The notes below the pieces were generated by a model that was not told the DNA's origin, did not search any database, and was given only the letters and a program-made list of their open reading frames with translations. A DNA stretch of 64,000 nt from Planktothrix tepida (GTDB lineage: Bacteria; Cyanobacteriota; Cyanobacteriia; Cyanobacteriales; Microcoleaceae): NCBI RefSeq assembly GCF_904830955.1, contig NZ_LR882970.1; one strand, 5' to 3'. Shown here one piece after another: positions 4,100 through 55,210 of this stretch. Numbering within the stretch: position 1 is the first letter of the stretch; each line of letters opens with the position of its first letter. The position numbers and the translations under genes are program-made.

Positions 4100-4141
4100 A
4101 CCAACCTGAGTTTGACCGAGTGCAATTACCTTGGGAATTTT

Positions 4142-5176: not shown

Positions 5177-5208
5177 TTTCGTTGATTCGAGTTTCTTGGA
5201 TTATACTG

Positions 5209-6953: not shown

Positions 6954-7045
6954 TTCAATGGGAATCTGTGGCTCCCTCGCCATCTTAGGACAAAAACTGC
7001 TATAATTGATTTAAACGAAGTCGTTATGAGTTTGAAATAAGAAGA

Positions 7046-9339: not shown

Positions 9340-10011
9340 CTATTCGGTGGGGAGACGGTCGAATGTGCCAAACGTTCGATCTCCTGCATCTCCCAAACCG
9401 GGTACAATAAAGCCCTGTTCATTGACTTCAGGATCAATAATAGCGGTATAGATTTGCAAACTGGGATAAGCTTGACTTAATTTTTGTAACGCTGGGGGGG
9501 CGGCGACAATGGAAATAACCCGAATCAATGCGGGTTCAAGATGACGCTGGGTGAGTTCTTCCATCACGGCCATGATTGTTCCCCCCGTTGCTAACATCGG
9601 TTCACTAATAATCACCCGCGTTTGAGGATCAAATTGGGCGGGTAATTTATTTAAATAGCAACTGGCTTCTAAGGTGTCTTCGTTGCGTACCATGCCAATA
9701 TGATAAACCGAAGATAAAGGCACAACGCTTTGAATTCCTTCCATTAACGCTAAACCAGCGCGTAAAATAGGAATCACAATCAGGGGAACTTCAGGATTAA
9801 CAAAGGTGGCACTACATTCGGTTAAGGGGGTTTGTACCGTTGTTTCCAGGGTTGGTAACCAGTCTCTGGCGGCTTCGTAGGTCAACCAACGTCCTAACTC
9901 CGTCATCGCCGTGCGAAATAAAGCCGGAGGAGTGGCCTGATCACGAGCAACTCCTAACCAATGTTTAATTAAAGGATGGGGGGGGACATAAATACGCAGT
10001 TGATTAGCCAT
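9340..10011 (-). CDS. upp: Uracil phosphoribosyltransferase
   Basis: The LRIYVPPHPLIKHWL N-terminus and the PRPP-binding region VISEPMLATGGT are present. Confidence 0.9.
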   Translation of the reverse strand: MANQLRIYVPPHPLIKHWLGVARDQATPPALFRTAMTELGRWLTYEAARDWLPTLETTVQTPLTECSATFVNPEVPLIVIPILRAGLALMEGIQSVVPLSSVYHIGMVRNEDTLEASCYLNKLPAQFDPQTRVIISEPMLATGGTIMAVMEELTQRHLEPALIRVISIVAAPPALQKLSQAYPSLQIYTAIIDPEVNEQGFIVPGLGDAGDRTFGTFDRLPTE

Positions 10012-10123
10012 AACAAAATCGTTAGAAAGTCTCCACTATCATCCCACACCATTGCCAGAGATGGGTTGACGGTTTTTAACCTTGAGCGATTAAAATATTA
10101 GTCTCTGTCTTCAGTGATCATTT

Positions 10124-11587
10124 ATGAAAGCAATCATGATTGTGGGAACTACTTCCCATGCTGGAAAATCCATGATGGTCACGGCCATTTGTCGAATTTT
10201 ACATCGTCGCGGTGTGCGGGTTGCTCCCTTTAAAGGGCAAAATATGGCTCTGAATTCCTATGTTTCTCCGGCCGGATCAGAAATGGGTTATGCTCAAGCG
10301 GTGCAAGCCTGGGCGGCGGGAGTGACTCCTTCTGTTTCTATGAATCCTATTTTATTAAAACCTCAAGGAAATATGACCTCTCAGGTAATTTTAAAAGGCA
10401 AACCTGTGGGAGTTGTACAAGCGAGTGATTATTATGAACACTATTTTGATCGGGGTTGGCAAACGATTACTGAATGTTTAGACTATTTAACCCAGGAATT
10501 TGATATTTTAGTTTGTGAAGGTGCTGGCAGTCCCGCCGAAATTAATCTCAAACATCGAGATTTAACGAATATGCGGGTGGCCAAATATTTGAATGCCAAA
10601 ACGTTATTAGTGGTTGATATTGATCGCGGGGGGGCCTTTGCTCATGTTGTGGGAACTTTGCAATTGTTAGACTCCGATGAACGGGCATTAATTAAAGGAA
10701 TTATTATTAATAAATTTAGAGGACAGCGATCGCTATTAGAATCGGGGATAAAATGGTTAGAGGAGTATACGGGAATTCCGGTTGTTGCGGTTATTCCTTG
10801 GATTGATCATCCCTTCCCCGCAGAAGATTCTTTAAGTTTATTAGATCGTCGTCCGAGTTCCTCCCAAGCGGAATTAACCATTGCCGTTATCCGATTTCCT
10901 CGCATTGCTAATTTTACAGATTTTGATCCCCTAGATGCTGAAACCAGCGTTAAAATTAAGTATGTGATGCCTTCTGACACTTTAGGACATCCCGATGCCG
11001 TCATTCTTCCAGGGTCTAAAACGACTATCTCTGACTTGCAAGTCTTAAAACAATCGGGAATGGCAAATCAAATTAAAAATTATGTTGAGGCGGGGGGTCA
11101 GGTCATGGGAATTTGTGGCGGTTATCAAATGTTAGGAAAAATTGTGTCAGATCCCTATGGTTTAGAAGGACAACAGGGGGATTATGAAGGTTTAGGATTA
11201 TTACCGACTAAAACCGTTATGTCCACTCAAAAAACCTCCCGTCAACGGTTGGTTTCATCCCATTATCCCCAAGAAGGTTTACCTGTTGAAGGATATGAAA
11301 TTCATCAAGGACGAACTCAATTGTTAGATTCTAACGATATTTCTCCTTTATTTAATGACCCGAATTTAGGATTTGTTAATCAGCAAAAATCGATTTGGGG
11401 TCATTATTTACATGGGGTTTTTGATAATGGCCCTTGGCGACGAACCTGGTTAAATCATCTACGAAAACCCAGAGGGTTAAATGCTTTACCCACTGGAATT
11501 GCTAATTATCGAGAACAGCGAGAATTGTTATTAGATTTATTAGCAGATACAGTAGATTCCTATTTAGATTTGAGATCGGTTTTATAG
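10124..11587 (+). CDS. cobQ: Cobyric acid synthase
   Basis: The N-terminal IMIVGTTSHAGKS P-loop is present. The C-terminal glutamine amidotransferase domain carries GICGGYQMLG. Confidence 0.9.
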   Translation: MKAIMIVGTTSHAGKSMMVTAICRILHRRGVRVAPFKGQNMALNSYVSPAGSEMGYAQAVQAWAAGVTPSVSMNPILLKPQGNMTSQVILKGKPVGVVQASDYYEHYFDRGWQTITECLDYLTQEFDILVCEGAGSPAEINLKHRDLTNMRVAKYLNAKTLLVVDIDRGGAFAHVVGTLQLLDSDERALIKGIIINKFRGQRSLLESGIKWLEEYTGIPVVAVIPWIDHPFPAEDSLSLLDRRPSSSQAELTIAVIRFPRIANFTDFDPLDAETSVKIKYVMPSDTLGHPDAVILPGSKTTISDLQVLKQSGMANQIKNYVEAGGQVMGICGGYQMLGKIVSDPYGLEGQQGDYEGLGLLPTKTVMSTQKTSRQRLVSSHYPQEGLPVEGYEIHQGRTQLLDSNDISPLFNDPNLGFVNQQKSIWGHYLHGVFDNGPWRRTWLNHLRKPRGLNALPTGIANYREQRELLLDLLADTVDSYLDLRSVL

Positions 11588-11611
11588 AAGTCAACCTCAA
11601 CAACAGTCAAC

Positions 11612-11845
11612 ATGAAAATCCATTTCTTACCCGATAAAGTTACCGTTGAAGCCCAACCTGGAGAACCTTTATTAGCCGTCGCCGAACGCGCCGGAGTTGT
11701 AATTCCCACTGGATGTTTAATGGGGTCTTGTCATGCTTGTGAAGTGGAACTAGACGAAGATAATTTTATCTGTGCTTGCATTTCTTCCGTTCCCTCTGGA
11801 AAAGCGGAAATCACCATTAATATTTATAGTGATCCTACTTGGTAA
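11612..11845 (+). CDS. Small 2Fe-2S ferredoxin-like protein
   Basis: 77 aa with Cys residues in a CxxGxCxxC-like arrangement (GCLMGSCHACE). It is probably co-transcribed with cobQ, 24 bp downstream. Confidence 0.55.
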   Translation: MKIHFLPDKVTVEAQPGEPLLAVAERAGVVIPTGCLMGSCHACEVELDEDNFICACISSVPSGKAEITINIYSDPTW

Positions 11846-11961
11846 ATGTTATAGCGCTACTTGAAGAGGGAAAAGTAAGAAGTGAAAGGGTTTCAGGTTT
11901 CACTCAATACTCCCATGCGTAGCACTATATAGCCAGAAATTTTGATAACAGAACAACCCGA

Positions 11962-11990
11962 TGAATAAAAATCAAGGGCTTGCGCCCTGG
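11962..11990 (-). terminator. Intrinsic terminator for the minus-strand tRNA-Leu
   Basis: Hairpin caagggc-ttgc-gccctgg at 11973-11990. On the minus strand it is followed by ATTTTTATT. Confidence 0.5.
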
Positions 11991-12022
11991 GATTTTCAGC
12001 CCAGCTTTTTAAAGCTGATTAA

Positions 12023-12104
12023 TGGGCGGAGAGAGACTCGAACTCTCACGACCGAAGCCGCCGCATTTTGAGTGCGGTGCGTCTACCAATTCCGCCACCC
12101 GCCC
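12023..12104 (-). tRNA. tRNA-Leu (anticodon CAA), type II with a long variable arm. No encoded CCA.
   Basis: The minus strand reads GGGCGGGTGGCGGAATTGGTAGACGC...CTCAAAA...GGTTCGAGTC...CCGCCCA. It has a 7-bp acceptor stem and a GTTCGAGTC T-loop. The anticodon loop CT-CAA-AA gives anticodon CAA. Confidence 0.85.
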
Positions 12105-12961
12105 TTGTTTGGGTTAGCTTCACTATTATAAACCATAAAGTTTCGTTTTAGCAAGTCCTGATAATTAGGACTACTCGACCAACGATCAATTTCTCTGGCT
12201 CGCAAGACCGGAAGGGGATGGGTTAACTGGGCAGTTTGAGCTTGCTGAAGGAGTTCTCCCAATTCTGTGCGACTAATTTGATCATACGTCCGGGCTTGGG
12301 CAACAAAGGCATCTAAATTCAGTTGCGAAGCTAAACTGGGAGAACCCCCCGACAGTTTCATCAACACCGACATTACGACTCTCGGATCTTGAGTTGCTAA
12401 TAGGGCTGCGCGATCGCAAGTAAACTCAGCACAACGCAACCATTCCATTAACTGCGCTTGTAACCCCTGAGCCAAAATTGTTCCCCAAGGAGACAATTGA
12501 TTCGCCGCTAAGACCACTAAATTCGCTAAGGTTAAATATACCCCATGTTCGCATTTTAAATGTCCTAACTCATGGGCAATTACCGCTTGAATTTCTTCCG
12601 AGGTTAATAACTCAATTAACGACGTATGAATGACAATAAACGGTTGTTTTCCCCGCATCGCAAAAGTATAAGCATTGGGAACCGGATGTTGGCGAATATA
12701 AAGTTGAGGCGGTTCTAAATCTAAAGTTTTGCAAGCCTCTAATAATAATTGATGAAGATCAGGTAATTGTTGATCACTAACTAAAATACTAGACGCAATA
12801 TTTTCTAAATAAAAAAACTGTTCCCCGACACCGCCTAAAATTTGCCGGACTAATAAATCTAAACCGGGCAATTGTTTCAAAGCATTGGTCGCTTGTAAAT
12901 CCAACGGATGACGGAAATGATCGGCTCGGAGTCCTATTAAAGGGGTCGTTGAAAACGTCAT
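12083..12961 (-). CDS. M48-family zinc metallopeptidase (HtpX-like)
   Basis: The HELGHLKCEH HExxH motif is present. 292 aa. The 3' end overlaps the tRNA-Leu 5' half by 22 nt. Confidence 0.75.
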   Translation of the reverse strand: MTFSTTPLIGLRADHFRHPLDLQATNALKQLPGLDLLVRQILGGVGEQFFYLENIASSILVSDQQLPDLHQLLLEACKTLDLEPPQLYIRQHPVPNAYTFAMRGKQPFIVIHTSLIELLTSEEIQAVIAHELGHLKCEHGVYLTLANLVVLAANQLSPWGTILAQGLQAQLMEWLRCAEFTCDRAALLATQDPRVVMSVLMKLSGGSPSLASQLNLDAFVAQARTYDQISRTELGELLQQAQTAQLTHPLPVLRAREIDRWSSSPNYQDLLKRNFMVYNSEANPNKGGWRNW

Positions 12962-43870: not shown

Positions 43871-45229
43871 CTAAATGCCTAATCCAAACTCCTTAGCTTC
43901 CGTCAATATCGGGTTAATATCATACCAAAAATGTTGAGCATGATTATATTCAAAAACCCATAAACTTCTGATTAGGGTTTGATATTCAATTTGACCACTC
44001 AACTTTTTAGTCGCTGCTACTTGGCGTAACATTTGCCATTCTTCAGCTTCAATGGCTAAGGTTAATTGATGACGACGTTGTAGAATTACCTCTTCTAAGG
44101 ATTCTCTTGTTAAAGGGGGATCTTCTTTTTGTAAACAGCTATATAACAAAATTAATAAACTCCGAACATGACCGCCACTAATGGTACAAAGACGATCTAA
44201 GGTTTCAGGACTATCAAAAATTGTATCAATTAAAGCTGGATAATCTTTCGCAGCCAGACCTGGAAATGCTCTTGCCATTACCATTTGTCTTAACAATTCA
44301 ATTCCCTCTTGACAAGGTGCGCCATCTTCAAATTTTACCGTCACCATCGGTAAGGTTTTTGGGTCATTCCCAAAACGATTCATCAGTTGTCCTAAATCAT
44401 TAGAAAAAATCAAACCTAAAGGAATGGTATAAACTACATGACAATTGAGTTTATTGAGTTGTTCACCGCGATCAATAAATAAATATTCGGGTTGAAATCT
44501 TCCCGTACTATTGGGGCTATAACTAATCCGATCTAAATTATCAATAATCACCACTAAACCTTGTTTTCCCATCTGTTTTAATTGTTGGATGGAAGGTTCC
44601 AATAATTCTTTATTGATAGCCTCTAAAATATTATTGGTTCGGGGTTCTAAATATTGACGTAATAAAGACCGTAAATCTCGACTATCTTTCGTCTTAGCCG
44701 TAATATTTCCAATCCCTGTAGAGAGGGAAAATTCTCCTTCTGTGTTAGCAGCCAATGTTCCCAGACCGGGGACGTTAATATCTGCTTTTAAGTCAATTTC
44801 TGTATTTAAAACATTAATGACTCCACTTAATAAACTTTTAAATCCTTTCGGTTGTAATTTAATTTTCAAGCTTTCAATACTTTCACTCACTTGACGAGCG
44901 ATCGCTAATAAAATATCGGTAATATCCACATCCCCCATATCTAAATCTTTACTCGATTCAAAATAAACGACATGGAATCCTTCTTTTTGGAGTTGAGCTT
45001 TCAACCTCAATAATTCCGTTGATTTCCCTGAACCTACTGGCCCGGTAAACAGTTGGCAGGTGGGGCGATCAGGGGATAACCGCGTAATTGTTCGTGCAAT
45101 TTGTTCCATGCACTTACCGCCTCGTGCTGGAGAAAAATCAATATAATATTTTTGATCTTCTGGACGTTCAACATCGAGGGTTTCAGCCGGATTAGAAGCT
45201 TTAAAAAAGCGAGATAAATCAAGTTCCAT
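43871..45229 (-). CDS. P-loop ATPase (AAA_16/Arch_ATPase-like)
   Basis: Walker A LFTGPVGSGKSTELL and Walker B GLVVIIDNLD are present. 452 aa. Confidence 0.6.
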   Translation of the reverse strand: MELDLSRFFKASNPAETLDVERPEDQKYYIDFSPARGGKCMEQIARTITRLSPDRPTCQLFTGPVGSGKSTELLRLKAQLQKEGFHVVYFESSKDLDMGDVDITDILLAIARQVSESIESLKIKLQPKGFKSLLSGVINVLNTEIDLKADINVPGLGTLAANTEGEFSLSTGIGNITAKTKDSRDLRSLLRQYLEPRTNNILEAINKELLEPSIQQLKQMGKQGLVVIIDNLDRISYSPNSTGRFQPEYLFIDRGEQLNKLNCHVVYTIPLGLIFSNDLGQLMNRFGNDPKTLPMVTVKFEDGAPCQEGIELLRQMVMARAFPGLAAKDYPALIDTIFDSPETLDRLCTISGGHVRSLLILLYSCLQKEDPPLTRESLEEVILQRRHQLTLAIEAEEWQMLRQVAATKKLSGQIEYQTLIRSLWVFEYNHAQHFWYDINPILTEAKEFGLGI

Positions 45230-45353: not shown

Positions 45354-46436
45354 TTAGTGGGCTAACCACCAGCCAAAACTCAAGCCCAGACCGGAGGTAA
45401 TCGCTAAAATTAAAAAGGTGTAAAATCCATTGTAGGACGCAAGTAATTTTTCTCCGGCAACCATTTGCGCCACCGTCCCTGCAACCACAGCGATCGCACC
45501 CCAAGCCGCAATAATCACCTCTGGCTGCATTCGTTGGATCACCCGCATCATCGCTTGTTTCCCGGCGCCGATCCAAGCTCCGATCCATCCTCCTAAGACT
45601 AATCCCAATAAACTTCCGGTTCCCAGTTTCGCCCTAGACCGAAAAATCGCATCTAAAATAATTCCTAACATTAATCCCATTATGGAGCCAAAACCCCCAC
45701 CCACCAAAGAACTTAACCAGTCTCCCTTTTTCGTTCCGGCGATTAACCCAGCAATTGCCGCAATTCCCATGATTGTCAAGAGCCCAATTACCCCTTTAGC
45801 AGGGCTTTCTGAGCCTGCCATCGCCCCTAATCCCAAGCCCACGCCTCCCCAGACTAGGGCGGTAATCATCCCCCCAGCTTCGTTTCCTAACACCCATCCG
45901 GCGATCGCTCCGGCAAAGATTAAGGCCATTAACCAAGGTTGACCGGACTCAGAATCTTCACTCGCCGCGATCGTAACCATGAGCCAACCCACGCTGAGAA
46001 AGACCCAAACCCAGGAAGGAATCTTCAATGTGGTTAAAATCCAGGCAATGATGGCATAGCTGAGAAAGACCCCGGTTAACCAACCCATTGGTAGAGGTGG
46101 GGAAGTTGGGGGCACTTCGACAGGCTTAGTGACCACAGGGGGAGTTGGGGGTACTTCGACAGGCTCAGTAACCACAGGGGGAGTTGGGAGGGTAGGGTAG
46201 GGGCTACTTAAATCTGTTTTTAAGGTTTCGTAGGCGTGGCTAATTTCTTTAAATTTGGCTTCCGCTTCCGCTTGTAAGATAGAATTCTGGGGATAGCGAT
46301 CGGGATGCCAAATCAACGCCTGATGGCGATAGGCTTGTCTGACCTCCTCTAAGGACGCCCCCGGTTCTAGGTTTAAAATTTTGTAGTATTTTTCGATCTC
46401 CACGTTTGAAATCTGTTGATCTTCTTTTATTTTCAC
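45354..46436 (-). CDS. J-domain protein with a Pro-rich tandem-repeat linker and a C-terminal Gly-zipper multi-TM domain
   Basis: The J domain YYKILNLEPGASLEEVRQAYRHQALIWHPDR carries HPD. The repeated PPVVT(E/K)PVEVPPT unit occurs twice. The C-terminal half is hydrophobic and G/A-rich. Confidence 0.7.
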   Translation of the reverse strand: MKIKEDQQISNVEIEKYYKILNLEPGASLEEVRQAYRHQALIWHPDRYPQNSILQAEAEAKFKEISHAYETLKTDLSSPYPTLPTPPVVTEPVEVPPTPPVVTKPVEVPPTSPPLPMGWLTGVFLSYAIIAWILTTLKIPSWVWVFLSVGWLMVTIAASEDSESGQPWLMALIFAGAIAGWVLGNEAGGMITALVWGGVGLGLGAMAGSESPAKGVIGLLTIMGIAAIAGLIAGTKKGDWLSSLVGGGFGSIMGLMLGIILDAIFRSRAKLGTGSLLGLVLGGWIGAWIGAGKQAMMRVIQRMQPEVIIAAWGAIAVVAGTVAQMVAGEKLLASYNGFYTFLILAITSGLGLSFGWWLAH

Positions 46437-46496: not shown

Positions 46497-49382
46497 GTGT
46501 TGGAACATCCCCTATTACTTTTGGTTGATGGTCATTCGTTGGCATTTCGTTCCTATTTTGCCTTTGGGAAAAGTCGCCAAGGAGGGTTACGCACGTCAAC
46601 GGGTATTCCGACCAGTGTTTGTTTTGGGTTTTTGAAGTCATTATTAGACGTTATGGCAAGTCAAAAGCCGGATTATTTAGCGATCGCTTTTGATTTAGGA
46701 GTTCCTACGTTTCGTCATGAAGCGGATGAAAATTACAAAGCGGATCGCTCTGAAACGCCTCAAGATTTTATTGAAGATGTGCAGAATTTACAAGCGTTAT
46801 TACAAGCGTTTGATTTAAGCATTGTTACGGCTCCGGGTTATGAAGCGGATGATGTTTTAGGAACCTTAGCCAACCGGGGAAGCCGGGAAGGATATCGAGT
46901 TAAAGTTTTATCGGGAGATCAGGATTTATTTCAATTAATTGATCTTGAAAAACAGATTAGTATTTTACATTTAGAACCGGGCAAAGGTAGTGTTCCTACA
47001 GAGTTTTTAGCTCAACAAGTTTATGATAAATTACAGATTTATCCTCATCAGGTGATTGATTATAAGGCATTATGTGGCGATAAATCCGATAATATTCCAG
47101 GGGTGAAAGGCATTGGGAAAACTACGGCTGTTAAATTATTAGGAGAATATGGTTCCTTAGAAAATATCTATGCTCATCTTGAGGATATTAAAGGCGCAAC
47201 TCGCCAAAAATTAGAGGAAGGAAAAGCCGATGCGGATCATTCTCAAACCTTAGCGCGAATTATTCAGGATGTACCTTTAGAGGTTGGTTTAGAAAATTTT
47301 AAATTACAAGGGTTTGATGTCGCTAAAATTCAACCTATTTTAGAGAAATTAGCCTTTCAAACATTTTTAGGAAAAATCAATCAAATTCAACAGCAATTTA
47401 AAGGAATAATTCAAACAGAAGTTACAGAAAATCCGGTTACTGTTGGGGACGATATCGATTTTTGGACACCGGAAGAAACCACAGCTTACCAAGAGCAAAA
47501 ACGGTTAAATAGTCCTGTGTCTAACATTAAAGTGCGTTTAATTCAAACTTCAGACGCTTTAGAAGAGTTAGTTGATATTTTAAAACAGCATACTGATGTT
47601 AACTATCCCGTTGCTTGGGATACGGAAACCACCTCTTTAGAATTCCTAAAAGCGGAATTAGTTGGAATAGGATGTTGTTGGGGAACAGAAGCAACCGATG
47701 TGGCTTATATTCCGTTAAATCATACTCAAGGAACAAATTTAGATAAAGTCCAAACGTTAGATCTTTTACGTCCGATTTTAGAAAGTGATCGCTATCCTAA
47801 AACGTTTCAAAATGCTAAATATGATCGGTCAATTTTTAGATCTCAGGGCATTAATTTACAAGGTGTTGTCTTTGATCCAATGTTAGCCGATTATATTTTA
47901 AACCCGGAAGCTAATCATAATTTAATTGATTTAAGTCTCAGACATTTAGGATCTGAATTAATCGCTCCTAGTTATGATGAATTAGTTCCTAAAGGGAAAA
48001 CTATTGCAGATATTAATATTAATCAAGTCGCTGAATATTGCGGAATGCAGGTTTATGTCACTTTTCAATTAGTAGAAAGCATCAAAGCCAAATTGATAGA
48101 TAAGCCTCATCTGATGAAACTTCTAACCGATGTTGAACAACCTTTAGAAGTTGTTTTAGCCGATATGGAATATTGGGGAGTAAATCTCGATATTGAATAT
48201 TTGCAAACTTTGGCAGAGCAACTCGATAAACAGTTAGAAATTATTGAAAATCAAGCTTATGAACTAGCTGGAGAAAAATTTAATTTAGGTTCTCCTAAAC
48301 AACTTAGCCAACTGTTATTTGAAAAATTAGAATTAAATACCAAAAAAACGCGCCAAACAAAAACAGGCTATTCAACGGATGTCAATGTTTTAGAAAAATT
48401 ACAAGGAGATCATCCTATTATTGATGTTATATTAGAATATCGAACTTTAGCGAAACTGAAGTCAACTTATGTGGATGCGTTACCCACAATGGTTGATGCT
48501 AAACAACGCATTCATACCAGTTTTAACCAAACCGTTACCGCAACAGGACGGTTATCTTCTTCTAATCCTAATTTACAGAATATTCCGATTAAAACTGAAT
48601 TTTCTCGAAAAATTAGAAAAGCCTTTACAACGGAACCCAACTGGTTATTAGTATCAGCCGACTATTCCCAAATTGAACTCAGAATTTTAGCTCATTTAAG
48701 TCAAGAACCTATTTTATTAGACGCTTATCAAAATAATCAAGATGTTCATACCGTGACCGCTAAATTATTATTTGAAAAAGACACCGTAACATCCGATGAA
48801 CGACGGTTAGGGAAAACCATTAATTTTGGTGTAATCTATGGAATGGGAGCCCAACGATTTGCACGGGAAGCAAAGGTGAGTAGTGCAGAAGGTAAGCAAT
48901 TTATTGAACGATTTAACCAACGCTATTCCCAGGTTTTTGCTTATTTAGAAACGGTTAAAAGACAAGCAATTGCTCAAGGGTATGTCGAAACTATATTAGC
49001 AAGAAGACGGTATTTTGATTTTCAAGGAAGCAGCTTAAACAATTTAAAAGGAGTTGATATTAATTCCATTGATTTAAGCCAATTAGGAAAAAAAATGGGT
49101 CAAAATGATGCCCAACTATTAAGAGCCGCTGCTAACGCTCCTATTCAAGGTTCCAGTGCTGATATTATTAAAATGGCAATGGTACAAGTGCATCAACTAT
49201 TAACTCAATATCAATCTCGATTAGTATTACAAGTTCATGATGAATTAGTCTTTGAAATTCCTGAGACGGAATGGGAAGAACTTCAACCCAAAATTAAAAC
49301 TATTATGGAACAAGTGCTTCCTTTAAGTGTTCCTTTAGTTGTAGATATTCACGCTGGACAAAATTGGATGGAAGCGAAATAA
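46497..49382 (+). CDS. polA: DNA polymerase I
   Basis: A 5'-3' exonuclease N-terminus is present (LLLVDGHSLAFRSYFA). The 3'-5' exonuclease domain and the polymerase motifs are present: motif A DYSQIELR, motif B RRxxKxxNFGxxYG as RRLGKTINFGVIYG, and motif C QVHDELVFE. 961 aa. Confidence 0.95.
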   Translation: MLEHPLLLLVDGHSLAFRSYFAFGKSRQGGLRTSTGIPTSVCFGFLKSLLDVMASQKPDYLAIAFDLGVPTFRHEADENYKADRSETPQDFIEDVQNLQALLQAFDLSIVTAPGYEADDVLGTLANRGSREGYRVKVLSGDQDLFQLIDLEKQISILHLEPGKGSVPTEFLAQQVYDKLQIYPHQVIDYKALCGDKSDNIPGVKGIGKTTAVKLLGEYGSLENIYAHLEDIKGATRQKLEEGKADADHSQTLARIIQDVPLEVGLENFKLQGFDVAKIQPILEKLAFQTFLGKINQIQQQFKGIIQTEVTENPVTVGDDIDFWTPEETTAYQEQKRLNSPVSNIKVRLIQTSDALEELVDILKQHTDVNYPVAWDTETTSLEFLKAELVGIGCCWGTEATDVAYIPLNHTQGTNLDKVQTLDLLRPILESDRYPKTFQNAKYDRSIFRSQGINLQGVVFDPMLADYILNPEANHNLIDLSLRHLGSELIAPSYDELVPKGKTIADININQVAEYCGMQVYVTFQLVESIKAKLIDKPHLMKLLTDVEQPLEVVLADMEYWGVNLDIEYLQTLAEQLDKQLEIIENQAYELAGEKFNLGSPKQLSQLLFEKLELNTKKTRQTKTGYSTDVNVLEKLQGDHPIIDVILEYRTLAKLKSTYVDALPTMVDAKQRIHTSFNQTVTATGRLSSSNPNLQNIPIKTEFSRKIRKAFTTEPNWLLVSADYSQIELRILAHLSQEPILLDAYQNNQDVHTVTAKLLFEKDTVTSDERRLGKTINFGVIYGMGAQRFAREAKVSSAEGKQFIERFNQRYSQVFAYLETVKRQAIAQGYVETILARRRYFDFQGSSLNNLKGVDINSIDLSQLGKKMGQNDAQLLRAAANAPIQGSSADIIKMAMVQVHQLLTQYQSRLVLQVHDELVFEIPETEWEELQPKIKTIMEQVLPLSVPLVVDIHAGQNWMEAK

Positions 49383-49406: not shown

Positions 49407-50948
49407 TCAAGTAGATTTTGTATTAATTATTCGAGATCTATAGCTATCAAAAAGTTCATCAATTTTTTGGGGGTCAGATACAAGTGTTCCCCGTTCATCT
49501 CGAAAGGTGCGATCGCGATCGCCCTTAAAAGAAAGCCAATTAAAACTTGTTGTAACAGCAAATTTTCCATCAGATATGAGGATTTTTGCGTGGGTATCTC
49601 CAAGACGTTTAAGGATAAAATTACCTTGGTACTGATTTGCTAATTTTTCAAGATTTTTCTCAGCTTGAATATCAGATTTTGAATTTTTATCATCGTTTTC
49701 TCCTAAACCGTACCCAATCAAAACTTGTACTCCCCGTTTGAGAAGATTTTCAAACTGTTGAATAAACTTTTTATCCACAGAACTTGCTCGAATCCAAGGA
49801 GAGATAATCATTAAACGTTTTTGACTCTCTTTAAGTGCTTGTTCGAGGATAGGACGGTGTTCGTACATTTCTAGCCATCGCATCGGAACTGAAGCTAGAA
49901 TAGAATCAAGTTGAGCTTGAAGTTCTTTTATTTGCTGTTGTGCTTCTTGAAGCTTTTGATCAAGAATGAGTTTTTCCTGATCATCTTCAGTTTGTTCAAG
50001 AGTATTTTGAGTTGTTTGTATTTTTTCTTCTATTTGAGCTTGAGCAGCAAAAACTTTTTCCTTAATCGCTTCAATTTCTTGTAAAGGAGCTTGAGCAACA
50101 AATTCATATCCTAAAACTGCTTCAGCTAACTTTCGGGGTGCGCTCTCTTTTAGGTTTTCTAATATCTGAAGTTTTTTGATTCCATTAGTACGATCAAAAA
50201 TTTCTTCATGATCATTAGAAATAACATCATCAATCGCAAAAGATACCTGAATATTATCACTATCTTTTGCCTTATAAATCAGCATCAAAGCGGGTTGAAA
50301 AAATATCGACCTGCGCTCAATAGCTTTCAAGGCTAAAAGGTCTCGCTCTTGCTTAACTCTGGCTTTGCTGGCTCCGTCAATCTGGCGAATAATTTTGTCT
50401 ACATCTTTGAGTTTAAGATCGGAAATTTCTGGTGACTTTTTTGGAAAGGGATCAATTTCTATAATGTCTTGATTACGCAAGTCTTTTTGCTTAAGTAAAC
50501 GTGACTCTAACTTTCCGTACCAACGAGGATACCGTAAAAGTCCATCAAAATTGATATCAAATGTTCGCTCTTCTGGAACAATAATTTTAGCCTCGCGGAG
50601 TGTTCCTTCACCTTTTTTCGTCAACTTCCAAACCTGTATCTGAGAGCCATCAGGAGCTATGAGGTCTATATCCTCACTCATCCTTAAATTGATCATTGCA
50701 TCCCTGACAATAGGCAATTCAATGCCAAGAAATCCAGCAATATCCGTTTCAGAGGATAAACCAGCATTAATCGATTTCAAGACATATTCTTCTATTGGTG
50801 GAATTGGTTTATGCAGTTGAGTTAGAGCTTGAACAGTAATTTTATAAACAGGTAAACCGACTTGTTTACAACTCACTAAATCGAAGCCTGTACGATTATT
50901 GTAGCGACGCAGTTCTTCTGGAGAAAAATCGAGATTTTCTAACTTCAT
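49407..50948 (-). CDS. Single-HKD phospholipase-D-family nuclease (MkoB-like), with a ~330-aa N-terminal region and a central coiled coil
   Basis: The C-terminal HKD motif is present as GDTHAKILISDGKFAVTTSFNWLS (HxK(x)4D followed by S/N). The coiled-coil segment spans EKIQTTQNTLEQTEDDQEKLILDQKLQEAQQQIKELQAQL. Confidence 0.7.
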   Translation of the reverse strand: MKLENLDFSPEELRRYNNRTGFDLVSCKQVGLPVYKITVQALTQLHKPIPPIEEYVLKSINAGLSSETDIAGFLGIELPIVRDAMINLRMSEDIDLIAPDGSQIQVWKLTKKGEGTLREAKIIVPEERTFDINFDGLLRYPRWYGKLESRLLKQKDLRNQDIIEIDPFPKKSPEISDLKLKDVDKIIRQIDGASKARVKQERDLLALKAIERRSIFFQPALMLIYKAKDSDNIQVSFAIDDVISNDHEEIFDRTNGIKKLQILENLKESAPRKLAEAVLGYEFVAQAPLQEIEAIKEKVFAAQAQIEEKIQTTQNTLEQTEDDQEKLILDQKLQEAQQQIKELQAQLDSILASVPMRWLEMYEHRPILEQALKESQKRLMIISPWIRASSVDKKFIQQFENLLKRGVQVLIGYGLGENDDKNSKSDIQAEKNLEKLANQYQGNFILKRLGDTHAKILISDGKFAVTTSFNWLSFKGDRDRTFRDERGTLVSDPQKIDELFDSYRSRIINTKST

Positions 50949-50958
50949 ATTTATTTAA

Positions 50959-51321
50959 CTAAATCTCTATTTCGGGTAATAGGTTCATTAATTTAGCAAC
51001 TACTTCAATTAGGACTTCTGGAGGCATTTTACAAGCAAACTCTGCTTGCCTTGCTTGCCAATCAAAGGATTTAATTTGATCGGCTAAAACAACTCCTGAT
51101 ACTGCCAATCCTTCTGGAATTGCTACTTCAAAAGGATAACCTTTTACTCGGCTAGTAATTGGACAGACTAAAGCTAGTCCAACTCGGCGATTATATGTTG
51201 TTTTTGAGATAACAATAGCTGGACGACGACCTGCCTGTTCCCTCCCTAATTGCGGAATAAAGTCAATCCAAATGATATCACCTTGACGGGGAATATACAA
51301 CTGAGGATTATCAGAATTCAT
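50959..51321 (-). CDS. mazF: MazF/PemK-family type II toxin (mRNA interferase)
   Basis: The 120-aa sequence PRQGDIIWIDFIPQLGREQAGRRPAIVIS...LALVCPITS matches the conserved MazF/PemK core. Confidence 0.8.
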   Translation of the reverse strand: MNSDNPQLYIPRQGDIIWIDFIPQLGREQAGRRPAIVISKTTYNRRVGLALVCPITSRVKGYPFEVAIPEGLAVSGVVLADQIKSFDWQARQAEFACKMPPEVLIEVVAKLMNLLPEIEI

Positions 51322-51327
51322 ATATTA

Positions 51328-51537
51328 TTATAACCCAATTTCACTATGAATGCTATCAGGTTTGATTGCTTCTAATAATTGCTTCAATTGACTCTCTCTT
51401 TGAATTAAACAAGGTAATTTAGCAGCAATAATTTCAATTGCTAAATATTCTATTGATTCTTCTTTTATTTCGGCTAGCAAAGAGAGTTGCTCAAAAAGCG
51501 TTTCCGAAATTTCTAATGTTATTTTGTGGTCTTTCAT
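51328..51537 (-). CDS. Putative cognate antitoxin (MazE-like) for the downstream MazF
   Basis: 69-aa acidic protein whose stop lies 6 nt upstream of the MazF start. Confidence 0.5.
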   Translation of the reverse strand: MKDHKITLEISETLFEQLSLLAEIKEESIEYLAIEIIAAKLPCLIQRESQLKQLLEAIKPDSIHSEIGL

Positions 51538-51619
51538 TGAACACCTGCTTATTTCGTAATCTACCAGTTGTAAAATGAGTAATATACAGACTATTTACCC
51601 GATAAAGGCTATACAGGAA

Positions 51620-54600
51620 TTATAACCCAGGCTCAGTTAAATCGCAATTTTCACGGTGACATTCAATATACTCTAAAACTCGGTGTAATGGATTCTCCTG
51701 TGAAGTTCGACAGAAATGGTGATCTCCCACAATTACTAAACCCACTTTACCTCTGGATAAAGCCACATTTAATCGTTCTGCATCACGCAGAAAACCCACT
51801 TTACCTTGTTTGTTAGAACGAGTTACAGAATACACGGCAATATCAGCTTCACGTCCTTGGAACGCATCTACTGTATTACACTCAACTGTTAATGCTTGCC
51901 AATTGTTTAATTCTGAATTAAGCCTACGATTAAGTAATTTTAGCTGTGCTGCATACCCGGTTAAAACAGCCACACTATATTTTTTTTCAGCTTTTACTGC
52001 TGTCTGATTTAGCTGTTTGAGAAACTCAACAATGACGTTTACTTCACAGGGATTGTTAAAGCTAGAATTTACAGACTGTTCATGAGAATTTTTAAGTTTA
52101 CTTGTTGTTAACCAAGTAACGGTTTTTGGTAATATTTTAGCCAGGTCTTTATCGATATCTGTCCTGGCACTTTTGAGTTGACCTTCATAAAAGCATTCAC
52201 TAACTAAATTGCCAATTGGTGCAACCATCCGATGTTGAATCGTTAACATCTTGCGACACCCATCTGGGAGTGTTCTAAGCAGTCGATCAAATAGAGTTTC
52301 TCGAATATCATCTTGAGTCAGTTCGTATTCGTCTAAAAAGTCAGAATTTCTGCTAACTTCATCTTTAAAGGGTGGCAGTTGTTTAGGGTCACCAACCAAT
52401 ATCCAGCGATGAGATCGCGCCATTGGGACTAATACTTCTGTCGCCGTAGCTTTTGAAGCTTCATCAACAATACACAGGTCAAATTCTATGTCTTGAATCT
52501 CTCTAGGAATTCCGATACAAGTCCCAGCTATTACTTGCGATCGCTTAATTAAAGGTATATTGAATTTGTCATTTCGACCAAACTGCTCAAACCATTCTGT
52601 TTGAATTTTTAGCAAGTTTTGTAGCATTTTTGAATCTGAATTATTTTGATCAATGAGTTGATTAATCTGTTCTTGTATCTCCTCAACCGATAATCTCAAA
52701 AGTTGATTGATACTACTTCTAGTTAATTCTTTTAACCGCTTGGCTTTTTCTTTCTGTTGCTGTCGCGCTTCTTTTAACTGCTGACGTAGAATGTTAATTT
52801 CCACTTCAATACTTTGACATTCCTCTAGCTTATCTTTGGGAATATGAGTTTCTAACAATGAATCTGGATTTTCTATGTCGTAATTTATTGCTAGAATTTC
52901 ATCTAAATCCTGTTTCCAGGCATTAACTTCTTCCCTGAAAGTTTCAATTTTTATTCCCAGATTTCTCATTTCTTGAAATAGTGTGGCTATTTCACTGTTA
53001 TGCCCAGAAATACCTCGTTGTGCTGACCAATTATCAATAAATTCCTGTCCTTTAGCGATCGCCGACTCTCTCCATTGTTCCATTTGTTCTTCCAGTAACA
53101 GAGAATGAACATTTTCTGATACCCTTTCATGGTTGCCAATTCGCAACAATTTCAAGTTAGGATCTTTCACTTTAATTCGTTCTAATGCGTTATCTAGTGC
53201 AACATGAGTTTGTGAACTCAGCAAAATTCTAGTCTCAGGTTTTTGATTAAGAATTTGCAGAACAACTTCTGTAATAAATGTTGTTTTTCCTGTCCCTGGT
53301 GGCCCTTGAACAATTAGAAAATCTTCTGTAGAAAGTGCAGCTTTGACAACTTGTTCCTGTGATTCATTCAGAGATTGAATAAACTGCACATCCACTTCTA
53401 AATCAGGAATACGAACTTCTTGGGGATTGACAAGTAATTGGCGAATATCTGAACGGACTCCCCTATCAAATCTAATTGCATCTAGGGCATTTTTTTGTCG
53501 ATTTAGGGAAACCTCAGCAGCACGAGTATCAAAACGTAATTCTCCAGATTGTGGGAGTCTTTCTGATTCTCCATATTTAATATAAAGAGTCAATTTGTCA
53601 CCGATAACTTGCTCAACATCTCCCTCCAAGATGATCGATTCTTTGGCATTTTTCACATAGCGTGGTTGTCCACCTAGATCATCTTCTGGAAGTTCTGATA
53701 ATTCAAAGGTAACGCGATTTCCATGATGAGTAAAGTCTTTGTATTTAATCGGTTTCTCTCTATTTTTTTCCCAATCACCCTTCGCTCTAAGAATATCCCA
53801 CCAAACTTGAAATATTCGTTGCTTTTCTTTCTCATCTTCCTGTTCTTTTAAGTTATCTTCATGCTCTATAACTGCATCCTCTAAATCCCGAATTACATCT
53901 TCTGCTTCATATAAATTCCGTGGCTTTCCAAATCTGAACTCGTAGGGAAGAATCCAAGAACGTTCTCGACGTTGTTCTAATTGCCAGTAAGAAGTAGACC
54001 AAGCATTCAAAATAACTAGGTGCTGTCGTTGGTTTTGATCTATCTTTATATGATATCGATAGGAAATACCATAAATTTCGTAGTGATCTTCACGGGACGC
54101 AGCATCGTTGGTGTCGTCCTTAAATTTAAAGGGACGAATGCCACAACCAGATTCATTATTGATATCTTCAAGGATAAGATTCTTGATCTCAACTTCTGAA
54201 GAAATCTTCAATTCATTCCTAAGTCGTTCTAAGCACCTTGGTGTAAGCTCAATAAAGCAAGGACGTTTTTTAATTTCTCCTGTTTTTGTCTTTCTTTGAA
54301 TAGCATTAATTTCAGCTAACAATACATCTGCATTATGCTGACGCTCTGCGGGGTCTAAGGAAACAGCACGCTCGATTACTTCTACGATTTCAGAGGGTGC
54401 ATTAAACGCTTTTAGAGCGGTGGAAATATTATTATGTTCTGTTAGTTCAATATTAGTTAAACACTTCAAAACCAATACACCAAAACTGAAAACATCGCGG
54501 GTGTAAGTATAGGAACCATCATCAAATTCTGGCGGCGTGAATGTACGCGATACAAAGTCTTTGAGTGTAATATTGGGTTCCAAATATCTTTTAAGCTTAG

Positions 54601-55072
54601 ATATGCCAAAGTCAGCAAGTTTGAGTTTACCGTCAATTCCTACTAAAATATTGCTAGGTTTAATATCCCGGTGTATAATTCCGCGATTATGGGAAAATGC
54701 TAAAGCTTCCAATGTGGGTAAGGCTATTGCTTTCCAGAATGAATCCCAATCTTCCGGGGGAGATTCTTTTAAAAGTGTTGTTAAATCTTTCTCCATCCAC
54801 TCCAGAACCAGAAAATAATTCCCCGTAGTTTCATCCTTTCCAGAATCAAGGAGTTCCACAATTCTAGGGTGTTTTAACTCTTGGAGAGCTAGGGTTTCAC
54901 GTCTGAAGGATTCGGCTAGAAAATCTGCTTCAATTTGTCCATTTTTGAATTCTTTTACCGCAACTAGCCGTTCTTCTTGGTTGTAGTCTCTTGCGCGGTA
55001 GACATCTGCCATTCCACCTGATCGTGGGTTGGGGGATAGAGCATAGCGATCGTTGATGAAGCGAGGTGGCAT
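51620..55072 (-). CDS. Ser/Thr protein kinase fused to a Upf1/DNA2-like SF1 helicase (COG1112-type), MkoA-like
   Basis: The kinase motifs are the VAVKEF lysine, HRDIKPSN catalytic loop, DFG (LADFGISK) and a TPPEF APE-like motif. The helicase motifs are GPPGTGKT, DEAS (CIVDEASKAT), QHRM and VDAFQGREADIAV. 1150 aa. Confidence 0.8.
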   Translation of the reverse strand: MPPRFINDRYALSPNPRSGGMADVYRARDYNQEERLVAVKEFKNGQIEADFLAESFRRETLALQELKHPRIVELLDSGKDETTGNYFLVLEWMEKDLTTLLKESPPEDWDSFWKAIALPTLEALAFSHNRGIIHRDIKPSNILVGIDGKLKLADFGISKLKRYLEPNITLKDFVSRTFTPPEFDDGSYTYTRDVFSFGVLVLKCLTNIELTEHNNISTALKAFNAPSEIVEVIERAVSLDPAERQHNADVLLAEINAIQRKTKTGEIKKRPCFIELTPRCLERLRNELKISSEVEIKNLILEDINNESGCGIRPFKFKDDTNDAASREDHYEIYGISYRYHIKIDQNQRQHLVILNAWSTSYWQLEQRRERSWILPYEFRFGKPRNLYEAEDVIRDLEDAVIEHEDNLKEQEDEKEKQRIFQVWWDILRAKGDWEKNREKPIKYKDFTHHGNRVTFELSELPEDDLGGQPRYVKNAKESIILEGDVEQVIGDKLTLYIKYGESERLPQSGELRFDTRAAEVSLNRQKNALDAIRFDRGVRSDIRQLLVNPQEVRIPDLEVDVQFIQSLNESQEQVVKAALSTEDFLIVQGPPGTGKTTFITEVVLQILNQKPETRILLSSQTHVALDNALERIKVKDPNLKLLRIGNHERVSENVHSLLLEEQMEQWRESAIAKGQEFIDNWSAQRGISGHNSEIATLFQEMRNLGIKIETFREEVNAWKQDLDEILAINYDIENPDSLLETHIPKDKLEECQSIEVEINILRQQLKEARQQQKEKAKRLKELTRSSINQLLRLSVEEIQEQINQLIDQNNSDSKMLQNLLKIQTEWFEQFGRNDKFNIPLIKRSQVIAGTCIGIPREIQDIEFDLCIVDEASKATATEVLVPMARSHRWILVGDPKQLPPFKDEVSRNSDFLDEYELTQDDIRETLFDRLLRTLPDGCRKMLTIQHRMVAPIGNLVSECFYEGQLKSARTDIDKDLAKILPKTVTWLTTSKLKNSHEQSVNSSFNNPCEVNVIVEFLKQLNQTAVKAEKKYSVAVLTGYAAQLKLLNRRLNSELNNWQALTVECNTVDAFQGREADIAVYSVTRSNKQGKVGFLRDAERLNVALSRGKVGLVIVGDHHFCRTSQENPLHRVLEYIECHRENCDLTEPGL

Positions 55073-55210
55073 AACTTAGCTATCAATAGAAGACATTTGT
55101 TTATTTATAACACAAATTACATTTTTAAGTCATCAAGCCTTTCTACTGTTAATCATCCGAAATCCTCAAGGATGCGGTGGTAGATTTAGAGTAATCCCTG
55201 AATCAATCAG

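Follow-up and report, generated by a model that had tools for sequence, protein, structure and literature searches.

In Planktothrix tepida, a MazF-type toxin gene and a small antitoxin gene lie between the two genes of a type I Mokosh defence system. This arrangement raises the question whether the toxin-antitoxin (TA) pair is a third component of the defence system or an autonomous element that has entered its operon. The locus is contained in a window of 64,000 nt, by which we mean the whole stretch of contig NZ_LR882970.1 (assembly GCF_904830955.1) that was analysed. The sequence-only reading of this DNA had put forward both possibilities and had seen no description of the arrangement. The latter is in line with our full-text literature search, in which no report of this arrangement was found.

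The four genes and their products

The open reading frame (ORF) listing of the window contained four co-oriented minus-strand ORFs in the order MkoA, 69-aa antitoxin, MazF and MkoB, with gaps of 82, 6 and 10 nt (Table 1). The stop codon of the convergent polA gene is located at 49382, 24 nt from that of mkoB. The genes, gaps and polA distance given by the sequence-only reading were correct to the base. GC content was even over the cassette and its flanks (about 0.33-0.40). The flanking genes encode PolA, a DnaJ-domain membrane protein, a VanZ-like protein, GH116 and an ABC transporter; since none of these is a defence gene, the idea of a large defence island around the locus was rejected.

Table 1 Features of the Mokosh locus in the window
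Feature	Position	Strand	Description
mkoA	51620..55072	-	1150 aa; N-terminal Ser/Thr kinase and C-terminal Upf1-like SF1 helicase
Antitoxin gene	51328..51537	-	69 aa; RHH-like N-terminus and shortened MazE-type MazF-binding tail (predicted)
mazF	50959..51321	-	120 aa; MazF/PemK endoribonuclease toxin
mkoB	49407..50948	-	513 aa; PLD-family nuclease, one HKD motif; effector of type I Mokosh
TA cassette leader, 82 nt	51538..51619	-	Left edge of the insertion
10-nt spacer TTAAATAAAT	50949..50958	-	Between mazF stop and mkoB start; right border of the insertion
Promoter-like site (TTGCGA, 17 nt, TATAAT)	51619..51647	-	Overlaps the stop codon of mkoA; putative internal promoter of the TA pair and mkoB
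Divergent intergenic region, 138 nt	55073..55210		mkoA start to the VanZ-like gene; presumed operon promoter site

Type I Mokosh is defined by a helicase gene that also bears a Ser/Thr kinase (STK) domain, together with a separate PLD nuclease gene; in validated systems the ATP-binding site of the helicase is required for defence, and the helicase and PLD activities suffice (Millman et al. 2022, bioRxiv 10.1101/2022.05.11.491447). The outer genes of our locus form a genuine pair of this type, as the sequence-only reading had suggested. MkoA matched the PADLOC profile MkoA PDLC03920 (E=1.1e-270) with residues 4-1145 aligned to positions 5-1107 of 1112. It carries a Pkinase domain (Pfam, E=4e-35, residues 18-233) within the same gene as a COG1112/Upf1-like SF1 RNA helicase (AAA_11, E=1.5e-45; AAA_12, E=3.6e-46); a match to the NCBIfam IGHMBP2-family helicase (E=1e-80) fell under the cut-off of that model. 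The motifs HRDIKPSN at 134 and DFG at 154 were found, and the ATP-binding site of the helicase is intact (GPPGTGKT at 590, DEAS at 870). MkoB, encoded by a separate gene, matched PADLOC MkoB PDLC03922 (E=1.7e-89) and Pfam PLDc_2, contains one HKD motif (HAKILISD, residues 453-460) and is 100% identical to a protein of Planktothrix tepida PCC 9214. The two genes have the same orientation and are separated by 671 nt, in which no terminator was predicted. Against Planktothrix orthologues (L081 and L091), dN/dS was 0.19-0.27 for mkoA, and against L081 it was 0.27 for mkoB, suggesting that both genes have been under purifying selection after the insertion. By these sequence features, the Mokosh pair of the locus belongs to type I and looks functional.

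The product of the third gene matched Pfam PemK_toxin (E=1.2e-26), solved MazF structures (E=2e-35) and NCBIfam NF007386 "endoribonuclease MazF" (125.9 bits, passing the equivalog cut-off of 120). It shares 48% identity with E. coli MazF; its R33 and T56 align to the conserved R29 and T52, residues that we take to have functional roles in the E. coli toxin. The dN/dS of mazF was 0.04-0.35, and values were below 1 for all four genes of the locus. Directly before the toxin gene, in the same orientation, comes the small antitoxin gene, so that mkoA and mkoB enclose a complete type II TA module, which bears out another point of the sequence-only reading.

The antitoxin was harder to classify. As a single sequence it matched no Pfam, NCBIfam or PADLOC antitoxin model; a Csn2 match (E=0.002) was rejected as spurious, and PDB sequence matches, all to designed armadillo repeat proteins, were treated as noise. 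A word-index homologue search returned only Planktothrix proteins, and the family surfaced only in an exhaustive profile search, which recovered 24 representatives among 1.84 billion proteins. Every member of identifiable source in this small family was cyanobacterial. Positions 48-78 of the family profile match residues 52-82 of E. coli MazE (1ub4_C, 1mvf_D; E=7e-6), indicating homology of the C-terminal segment with the MazE tail that binds MazF. In the Planktothrix antitoxins the tail ends at the residue aligned to the conserved aromatic residue of the family, so that the last ~9 residues are missing.

No AbrB/SpoVT-type or Pfam antitoxin domain was found in the antitoxin by Pfam or family-profile searches, and the family profile gave weak matches to RHH_7, Arc, RHH_1 and ParD. 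An AF2 model built from a deeper alignment (pLDDT 88) has an extended segment at residues 1-11 and helices at 12-25 and 29-57, giving a strand-helix-helix topology. Its top Foldseek neighbours were nearly all RHH proteins, with no single significant match; they included CopA(SO) (prob 0.93, TM 0.81, best E 0.43) and chain 6a6x_D (TM 0.61/0.74, rmsd 2.4 Å). A two-helix hairpin model from a shallow, Planktothrix-only alignment had been confident yet misleading, had found no significant match in a fold search, and was superseded by the model above. The name MazE given by the sequence-only reading thus holds for the C-terminal tail but not for the N-terminus; the 69-aa protein is not a canonical MazE, and the models and profiles suggest an RHH-like head on a shortened MazE-type tail. 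Members of the antitoxin family are paired with MazF wherever both genes were readable; two metagenome loci (L106, L108) had antitoxin-like matches and no MazF match.

The module resembles E. coli MazEF (chpA) in its toxin, in the antitoxin gene immediately upstream and in the antitoxin tail. However, it differs in having an RHH-like domain where E. coli MazE has an AbrB/SpoVT swapped hairpin, and the Planktothrix antitoxins lack the end of the tail. The M. tuberculosis MazE9-MazF9 module (PDB 6a6x) likewise pairs an RHH DNA-binding domain with a MazF toxin, but sequence similarity between the N-terminal domains is undetectable. The locus defines a small antitoxin family in which an RHH-like head is combined with an E. 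coli-type MazE tail.

Gene order across Mokosh loci and within Planktothrix

None of 60 scored type I Mokosh loci had a gene between mkoA and mkoB. In 34 of them the two genes share a 4-nt overlap (ATGA), and the largest spacing was <=255 nt. In the window, the 671-nt TA cassette takes the place of this overlap: the junction reads ...gagcctgggttATAA[cassette]ATGAagtta..., versus ...gagcctaacttATGAgttca... in relatives. The locus thus resembles type I Mokosh as described (Millman et al. 2022) in its two genes, their intact motifs and full-length profile matches, and differs from it in that mkoA and mkoB are not contiguous. The TA pair was absent from the great majority of 80 genome Mokosh loci, including the closest TA-less relative (L082, MkoB 83% identical), whose mko genes overlap. 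In two loci (L033 and L038) the TA genes have decayed beside a Mokosh pair. Across homologous loci, the TA and Mokosh genes showed neither the co-occurrence nor the co-retention of a three-component system.

Within Planktothrix, the same gene layout was found in the same slot between polA and the VanZ-like gene in locus L081, with 90.6% nt identity overall (95-97% for the TA genes, 89-93% for the mko genes). In one Planktothrix pair, MazF was 99% identical and the Mokosh proteins 86-90%. Loci L090 and L091 share layout and slot; mkoA of L090 is interrupted by 3.1 kb with two transposase-like ORFs, and in L091 the mkoB homology stops at residue 251, an apparent truncation. In P. agardhii the slot holds the TA pair alone, between the 3' ends of mkoA (13 nt) and mkoB (~45 nt); in the mkoB remnant tblastn found MkoB residues 500-507. 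The P. agardhii antitoxin was indexed in 613 blocks of the searched collection. The insertion is not recent, since it is common to the genus, and probably predates the sampled Planktothrix species. Comparison of these loci showed that the TA pair outlasts Mokosh in Planktothrix, the erosion of mkoA and mkoB by deletions and insertion sequence (IS) insertions apparently halting at the TA borders.

The slot offers a natural series of TA "addiction" against defence-gene turnover, with four states in one genus: intact mkoA-TA-mkoB, IS-disrupted mkoA, truncated mkoB, and the TA pair alone with 13-nt and 45-nt mko scars. In this series the TA pair preserves itself and not its neighbours.

The cassette probably carries regulatory sequence of its own. 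The promoter-like site upstream of the antitoxin gene has 10 of 12 consensus matches; promoter and terminator scans returned no more sites in the region than in shuffled sequence, so the case for a TA promoter leans on conservation. The TATAAT box does not vary among the five Planktothrix copies, including that of P. agardhii, where mkoA is gone, homology begins just 13 nt upstream of the former mkoA stop, and nothing co-oriented lies upstream of the TA pair. The leader is well conserved among the Planktothrix copies (the aligned region containing it averages 90% column identity) and is kept together with the TA pair in P. agardhii. The conserved -10 box and leader therefore make up a candidate promoter of the cassette itself. 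Leader homology was also sought in other copies for fixing the cassette borders, and nothing beyond ~25 nt before the ATG could be aligned in Hormoscilla-type or free-standing copies. At the other border, the spacer TTAAATAAAT is identical in L081 and is kept in P. agardhii, where it joins straight to the mkoB remnant. The scan predicted no terminator or promoter-like site between mazF and mkoB, so mkoB is likely also under the TA promoter. The operon promoter is presumed, from gene layout alone, to lie in the divergent region, in which a consensus scan found no minus-strand promoter-like site. The search for a target-site duplication gave only ambiguous AT-rich similarity (TTATAA, AATATGA). 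The sequence-only reading had named a recent independent insertion with its own promoter and terminator as evidence against its proposal; half of this was found, in that the candidate -10 box and leader are conserved, but the insertion is genus-wide and no terminator was predicted.

The toxin-antitoxin family outside Planktothrix

Loci of Nostoc, Coleofasciculaceae and metagenomes contain the same TA family alone, with no Mokosh nearby. Mokosh was found near none of 80 metagenome loci recovered with a query keyed on the MazE-type tail; such a query yields mostly ordinary MazE loci and cannot recover the tail-less Planktothrix type, so that these loci served as a background set only. In Hormoscilla-type genomes a sister TA lineage is likewise found next to type I Mokosh, there downstream of mkoB. 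The Planktothrix and Hormoscilla-type pairs form one clade (NJ bootstrap 82, 94, 99), and all members of this clade with visible context adjoin a type I Mokosh system or its relic. In Hormoscilla SP5CHS1 (L095-L097) gene calling split mkoA into three ORFs and mkoB into two, next to an intact TA pair. Upstream of mkoA, a Hormoscilla-like locus (L093) also carries genes for a ParE-type toxin and a PIN-domain protein, consistent with an islet of selfish or defence modules. In a Solirubrobacterales genome, too, a PemK-family TA pair was found near mkoB, at a distance of about 200 nt.

The Planktothrix Mokosh proteins are 58-62% identical to those of Hormoscilla, versus 75-83% to those of TA-less Microcoleus. 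The two Mokosh lineages are thus not mutual closest relatives, and one capture common to both would imply either many losses or a transfer. We read the Hormoscilla-type adjacency as co-travel in a small mobile defence/TA islet and not as biochemical integration. Random placement of a TA pair in a 6-Mb genome would rarely put it next to Mokosh, so some selective or mechanistic link between the two is possible, and the sister lineage provides a concrete, testable hint of non-random linkage.

Probable independent insertion and its rivals

We consider it probable that the locus is a Mokosh operon into which an autonomous TA element inserted, at the ATGA overlap, in an ancestor of the sampled Planktothrix, and that the two systems work independently. 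The cassette would comprise the 82-nt leader with its own -10 box, the RHH/MazE-tail antitoxin, MazF and the 10-nt spacer, and would have entered exactly at the 4-nt overlap that normally couples mkoA to mkoB. By analogy with the published system, the helicase/kinase MkoA would be the sensor, responding to phage RNA or to replication intermediates, with the PLD nuclease MkoB as the effector. E. coli MazEF has been implicated in plasmid addiction and in phage exclusion. By analogy with MazEF, the antitoxin tail is expected to bind MazF, and the antitoxin probably represses its own promoter through the RHH domain; upon loss of the antitoxin, MazF would cut RNA and arrest growth. The cassette would therefore be difficult to lose and might provide an additional layer of abortive infection, and transcription of mkoB from the TA promoter would likely be a side effect. 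The locus comparisons showed that Mokosh elsewhere does without the TA pair and the TA pair without Mokosh, the TA pair guarding only itself. Of the two possibilities raised by the sequence-only reading, the 60-locus gene-order comparison and the Planktothrix series favoured insertion into a defence operon, and the three-component variant was not supported, given the lack of any insert in the 60 loci, free-standing relatives of the TA pair, and its persistence after Mokosh loss. Our verdict is that both parts are known, autonomous systems in a genus-wide arrangement not reported before.

An integrated three-part defence, in which the MazF pair would serve the Planktothrix Mokosh lineage as a functional accessory, seems unlikely. 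MazF could then serve as a second RNA-cleaving effector or as a fail-safe firing when a phage blocks Mokosh; the MkoA kinase/helicase might act on the antitoxin and free MazF, or a stress-responsive TA promoter might switch mkoB. The tight embedding, with mazF 10 nt from mkoB and no terminator predicted, speaks for such a function, as do the retention of the arrangement across Planktothrix species with MazF more conserved (99%) than the Mokosh proteins (86-90%), the sister TA lineage attached to Mokosh in Hormoscilla-type genomes, and the third, PemK-family pair beside mkoB in Solirubrobacterales. There is also precedent in the prr locus, where the PrrC anticodon nuclease is embedded in the EcoprrI type Ic restriction-modification operon; PrrC has no antitoxin of its own and is kept latent by the restriction proteins themselves. 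Both loci hold an RNA-cleaving toxin gene within the operon of another nucleic-acid-targeting defence system, but our MazF has a cognate antitoxin and comparative data separate the two systems. A MazF-like module has further been recruited into type II Gabija (PMC13069673). However, embedded genes were absent from all 60 scored Mokosh loci, and the TA pair is missing from the nearest Mokosh relatives. The TA family in turn occurs without Mokosh, and the pair survives intact beside Mokosh genes that are fragmented, truncated or disrupted by IS elements, and also where they have been deleted; in L033 and L038, conversely, the TA pair has itself degraded beside a Mokosh pair. In addition, its position differs between the Planktothrix and Hormoscilla-type lineages, and validated Mokosh requires the helicase and PLD activities only.

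It is very unlikely that the Mokosh genes of the window are already dead, with a selfish TA pair as the sole active element and no role in defence. Mokosh has been lost within Planktothrix through IS insertion, truncation and deletion, and the insertion broke the mkoA/mkoB translational coupling present in most homologues; yet both mko ORFs of the window are full length with all catalytic motifs intact, their profile matches run end to end, and their dN/dS values indicate purifying selection since the insertion.

We regard as rather improbable a dedicated partnership of this MazF/RHH-MazE clade with type I Mokosh in Oscillatoriales-type cyanobacteria. If it were true, MkoA, on sensing phage RNA, might inactivate the short-tailed antitoxin and free MazF as a second, RNA-level effector, or the autoregulated TA promoter might switch the MkoB nuclease in response to infection; either route would be a new type of cross-wired defence/TA circuit. 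To our knowledge, phage defence in bloom-forming Planktothrix has received little experimental study, which makes a cassette that can be tested with and without its TA pair useful. Chromosomal TA pairs have been described as autonomous elements without conserved neighbourhoods that seldom cluster with defence systems (Belot et al. 2026, PMC13617665). The Planktothrix pair resembles these in persisting while linked genes erode, but differs in that its clade adjoins one defence system in two cyanobacterial lineages.

Genes of the composite locus

The four minus-strand reading frames delimited by the sequence-only reading were recovered at exactly the same coordinates in an ORF listing, with intergenic gaps of 82, 6 and 10 nt from mkoA through the antitoxin gene and mazF to mkoB, and with 24 nt between the stops of mkoB and the convergent polA. 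Base composition was even over the cassette and its flanks, and the MkoB sequence was matched at 100% identity in Planktothrix tepida PCC 9214.

Coordinates of features in the window and in comparison loci
Sequence	Feature	Position	Strand	Product or content
Window	mkoA	51620-55072	-	1150 aa
Window	antitoxin ORF	51328-51537	-	69 aa
Window	mazF ORF	50959-51321	-	120 aa
Window	mkoB	49407-50948	-	513 aa
Window	polA	46497-49382	convergent with mkoB	
Window	DnaJ-domain gene	45354-46436	-	membrane protein with proline-rich repeat PPVVT[EK]PVEVPPT
Window	P-loop ATPase gene	43871-45229	-	452 aa; two genes past polA
L090	insertion at window position 54017/54018	4404-7519	ORFs opposite to mkoA	two transposase-like ORFs, 411 aa and 500 aa
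L090	antitoxin gene	10001-10210		homologue of window 51328-51537
L084	DNA in place of mkoA	9596-9898		~300 nt, unrelated
L082	genes beside Mokosh	1-6319		DEAD helicase, Helicase_C/MZB, then VWA, PP2C and kinase-TPR genes
L093	genes directly upstream of mkoA	775-1978		PIN-domain gene, then 89-aa ORF and ParE-type toxin gene
L064	PemK-family pair	11552-12147	-	85-aa ORF and 114-aa PemK homologue
L038	tandem array	12200-12460		~21-nt unit catgtgaagcatgacctgtgg

Type I Mokosh is defined in published work by a helicase gene that also bears an STK domain and a separate PLD nuclease gene, and its defence requires both the helicase ATP site and the PLD active site. The assignment of the outer genes to this pair was borne out by profile searches and motifs that fit the definition. 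MkoA matched the PADLOC MkoA profile end to end (E=1.1e-270), contained the Pfam domains Pkinase, AAA_11 and AAA_12, and carried the kinase (HRDIKPSN, DFG) and helicase (GPPGTGKT, DEAS) motifs required for activity; MkoB matched the PADLOC MkoB profile (E=1.7e-89) and Pfam PLDc_2, with one PLD nuclease motif (HAKILISD). The dN/dS ratio was below 1 for all four genes in Planktothrix comparisons, so that the toxin-antitoxin (TA) pair is under purifying selection and the Mokosh system in the window looks functional.

The 120-aa protein matched Pfam PemK_toxin, scored 125.9 bits against the NCBIfam MazF equivalog cut-off of 120, and aligned full-length to solved MazF structures (E=2e-35). It was 48% identical to E. 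coli MazF, and the positions aligned to R29 and T52 were conserved. The proposed MazE/MazF pair thus held for the toxin, whereas the antitoxin is not a canonical AbrB-type MazE and only its tail is MazE-like. As a single sequence, the 69-aa protein had no match in Pfam, NCBIfam, PADLOC or PDB searches. An exhaustive profile search of 1.84 billion proteins gave a family of 24 representatives, mostly 77-94 aa; in Hormoscilla, Nostoc and Coleofasciculaceae, its members are encoded directly 5' of closely related mazF genes. Over its last 31 positions, the family profile shows homology to the tail by which E. coli MazE binds MazF (PDB 1UB4, 1MVF; E=7e-6). The Planktothrix antitoxins end ~9 residues short of the family tail. 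The N-terminus gave weak but consistent ribbon-helix-helix (RHH) profile matches (RHH_7, Arc, RHH_1, ParD). An AF2 model from a 20-sequence alignment (pLDDT 88) had residues 1-11 extended and helices at 12-25 and 29-57, and its nearest solved structures were almost all RHH proteins, including CopA(SO), TacA, AtaR and M. tuberculosis MazE9 (best match: prob 0.93, TM 0.81, rmsd 1.6 Å; all E-values at least 0.43). The tail homology and these RHH-type matches indicate that the antitoxin probably joins an RHH head to a MazE-type tail; RHH-type MazE antitoxins are already known (e.g., 6a6x).

Beyond polA, the P-loop ATPase showed weak matches to PADLOC candidate families (PDC-S20, E=1e-6; mad8, E=1.5e-4), and its homologue in the Planktothrix locus L090 showed weak KAP/nSTAND NTPase matches; a solitary STAND-like defence gene is one possible identity. 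In the neighbouring DnaJ-domain gene, GC content climbs locally to 0.52-0.53 against a background of ~0.36.

The mkoA/mkoB junction in other genomes

Homologues of all four proteins were located in 80 genome loci encoding MkoB relatives (32-83% identity; the genome collection has 270 Mokosh loci, of which these are the best 80), and the mkoA/mkoB junction was scorable in 60. The two genes overlap by 4 nt (ATGA) in 34 of these 60 loci, the widest gap is 255 nt, and no gene lies within the gap in any of them. The window cassette is positioned exactly at this overlap: the junction reads ...gagcctaacttATGAgttcagaagaa... in relatives and ...gagcctgggttATAA[82 nt, antitoxin, mazF, 10 nt]ATGAagttagaaaat... 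in the window. The overlap in relatives, including the closest TA-less one among the best 80 of 270 (L082, 83% MkoB identity), argues that the TA cassette was inserted into an ancestrally coupled mkoA-mkoB operon, and most type I Mokosh lineages manage without it.

In eight comparison loci (L001, L006, L009, L010, L011, L023, L038 and L041), non-coding filler of 74-255 nt takes the place of the ATGA overlap, with palindromic stretches in the filler of L001. The junction evidently tolerates small insertions.

States of the locus within Planktothrix

The slot between the VanZ-like gene and polA can be traced through Planktothrix in five states. All four genes are intact in the window, and L081 has the same four at 90.6% nucleotide identity, with 95-97% in the TA pair (MazF 99% at the amino acid level) versus 89-93% in the mko genes. 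Strain FACHB-1365 (L091) retains intact mkoA, antitoxin and mazF genes, and its mkoB homology ends at residue 251, followed by unrelated AT-rich DNA to the contig end. L090, which carries the label P. pseudagardhii, shares 98% identity with the window, and its mkoA is broken by 3.1 kb of inserted DNA. Finally, in the six P. agardhii genomes examined, all complete or nearly so, the slot holds only the antitoxin gene and mazF; the index of the collection has this antitoxin sequence in 613 blocks. By blastn, P. agardhii homology to the window begins 13 nt before the former mkoA stop, spans the leader, the TA pair and the 10-nt spacer, and then jumps directly to the 3'-terminal ~45 nt of mkoB, continuing into polA; tblastn recovered MkoB residues 500-507 in the slot. 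Given these mkoA and mkoB remnants on either side, the TA-only state arose from the composite through two deletions ending at the TA borders.

Some smaller differences were also observed. The unrelated DNA in the P. agardhii locus L084 includes a MITE-like feature, a long and imperfect palindrome (GTAGGGGTTTGGTCTCCAAACCC...GGGTTTAGAGACTAAACCCCTAC), and the P. agardhii leader has a 7-nt insertion (TAATCTT). The antitoxin gene of L090 differs from that of the window at 10 of 210 nt, compared with 8 of 1542 nt in the adjoining mkoB, and resembles the FACHB-1365/P. agardhii type, which points to a short recombined patch at the antitoxin gene.

A consensus scan placed a promoter-like site (TTGCGA, 17 nt, TATAAT) across the mkoA stop; over the region, such sites were no more numerous than in shuffled sequence. 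Conservation of the TATAAT box and of the 82-nt leader nevertheless extends to every Planktothrix copy, even that of P. agardhii, in which no co-oriented gene precedes them, and the TA pair very probably has its own promoter. A TA element with both promoter and terminator had been envisaged; the conserved box and leader speak for the former, but no terminator-like site was predicted on the coding strand among the four genes. Since mkoB also starts 10 nt past mazF, we infer that it would be transcribed by read-through from the mkoA promoter and also from the TA promoter.

Relatives of the TA pair and reading of the locus

The closest non-Planktothrix MazF proteins with readable context (75-78% identity) are from Hormoscilla and Hormoscilla-like genomes, where the order is mkoA-mkoB-antitoxin-mazF and the TA pair lies ~260 nt downstream of mkoB. 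In Hormoscilla SP5CHS1 (L095-L097), the gene calls split mkoA into three ORFs and mkoB into two beside an intact TA pair. Frameshifts in several of the comparison genomes, which are MAGs or long-read assemblies, may be errors. The reverse pattern occurs in L038 (Hormoscilla sp. GUM202), with an in-frame stop in the antitoxin gene and mazF cut off after residue 57, and L033 has the same truncated mazF match; the tandem array of L038 starts shortly after this truncated gene. In Nostoc and Coleofasciculaceae (72-73% MazF identity), the same TA family stands alone amid unrelated genes, and none of 80 metagenome loci had a Mokosh pair near a MazE-tail antitoxin.

The locus is best supported as two autonomous systems, Mokosh and TA. 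A self-contained MazF cassette would have entered a type I Mokosh operon at the gene overlap before the sampled Planktothrix species diverged, and it would retain itself in place because its loss would free a stable RNase. It gives its neighbours no protection, the genes around it being disrupted or deleted, in agreement with a recent study describing chromosomal TAs as selfish elements whose neighbourhoods are not conserved (PMC13617665). Of the two possibilities raised by the sequence-only reading, a TA element inserted into a defence operon is favoured by the cassette's position at the ATGA overlap, the 60 gene-free junctions and the occurrence of the TA alone elsewhere, while a three-component Mokosh is contradicted by its main test, as the components are not retained together.

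A functional link between Mokosh and the TA pair appears unlikely but retains some probability from one observation: members of a single TA clade adjoin type I Mokosh in two lineages, and the Mokosh genes of these lineages are not mutual closest relatives. In neighbour-joining trees, the Planktothrix and Hormoscilla-type pairs form one clade with free-standing pairs outside (bootstrap: MazF 82, antitoxin 94, concatenated 99; distance-based trees of short proteins from 14 taxa), and the Planktothrix Mokosh genes are 58-62% identical to those of Hormoscilla versus 75-83% to those of TA-less Microcoleus. TA-like genes flank Mokosh on both sides in the Hormoscilla-like locus L093, with the PIN-domain and ParE-type genes upstream of mkoA and the MazF pair downstream of mkoB, which favours a small islet accumulating selfish modules over specific biochemical coupling. 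A separate, independent case of a PemK-family TA adjoining type I Mokosh is a Solirubrobacterales MAG (L064), where ~200 nt separate mkoB from the convergent, opposite-strand pair downstream of it, and the 85-aa ORF is RHH-like by eye.

Type I Mokosh and MazF TA pairs are each known kinds, and MazF-like modules within other defence systems have already been described. The view that a TA inside Mokosh had not been described before was sustained by full-text searches (Mokosh + MazF; Mokosh + cyanobacteria + toxin-antitoxin), which gave reviews and surveys and no description of a Mokosh operon with an embedded TA. The main value of the locus is a natural series in which the TA outlives the surrounding defence genes; it is also a testable hint of Mokosh-TA linkage.

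Plasmid-borne type I Mokosh relatives (70-71% MkoB identity) were found in Nostoc linckia NIES-25 (L018, plasmid3) and Anabaena azotica SJ-1 (L022), in keeping with a horizontal spread of the cassette between cyanobacteria. The surroundings of Mokosh in L082 look like a defence island, in contrast to the housekeeping surroundings in Planktothrix.
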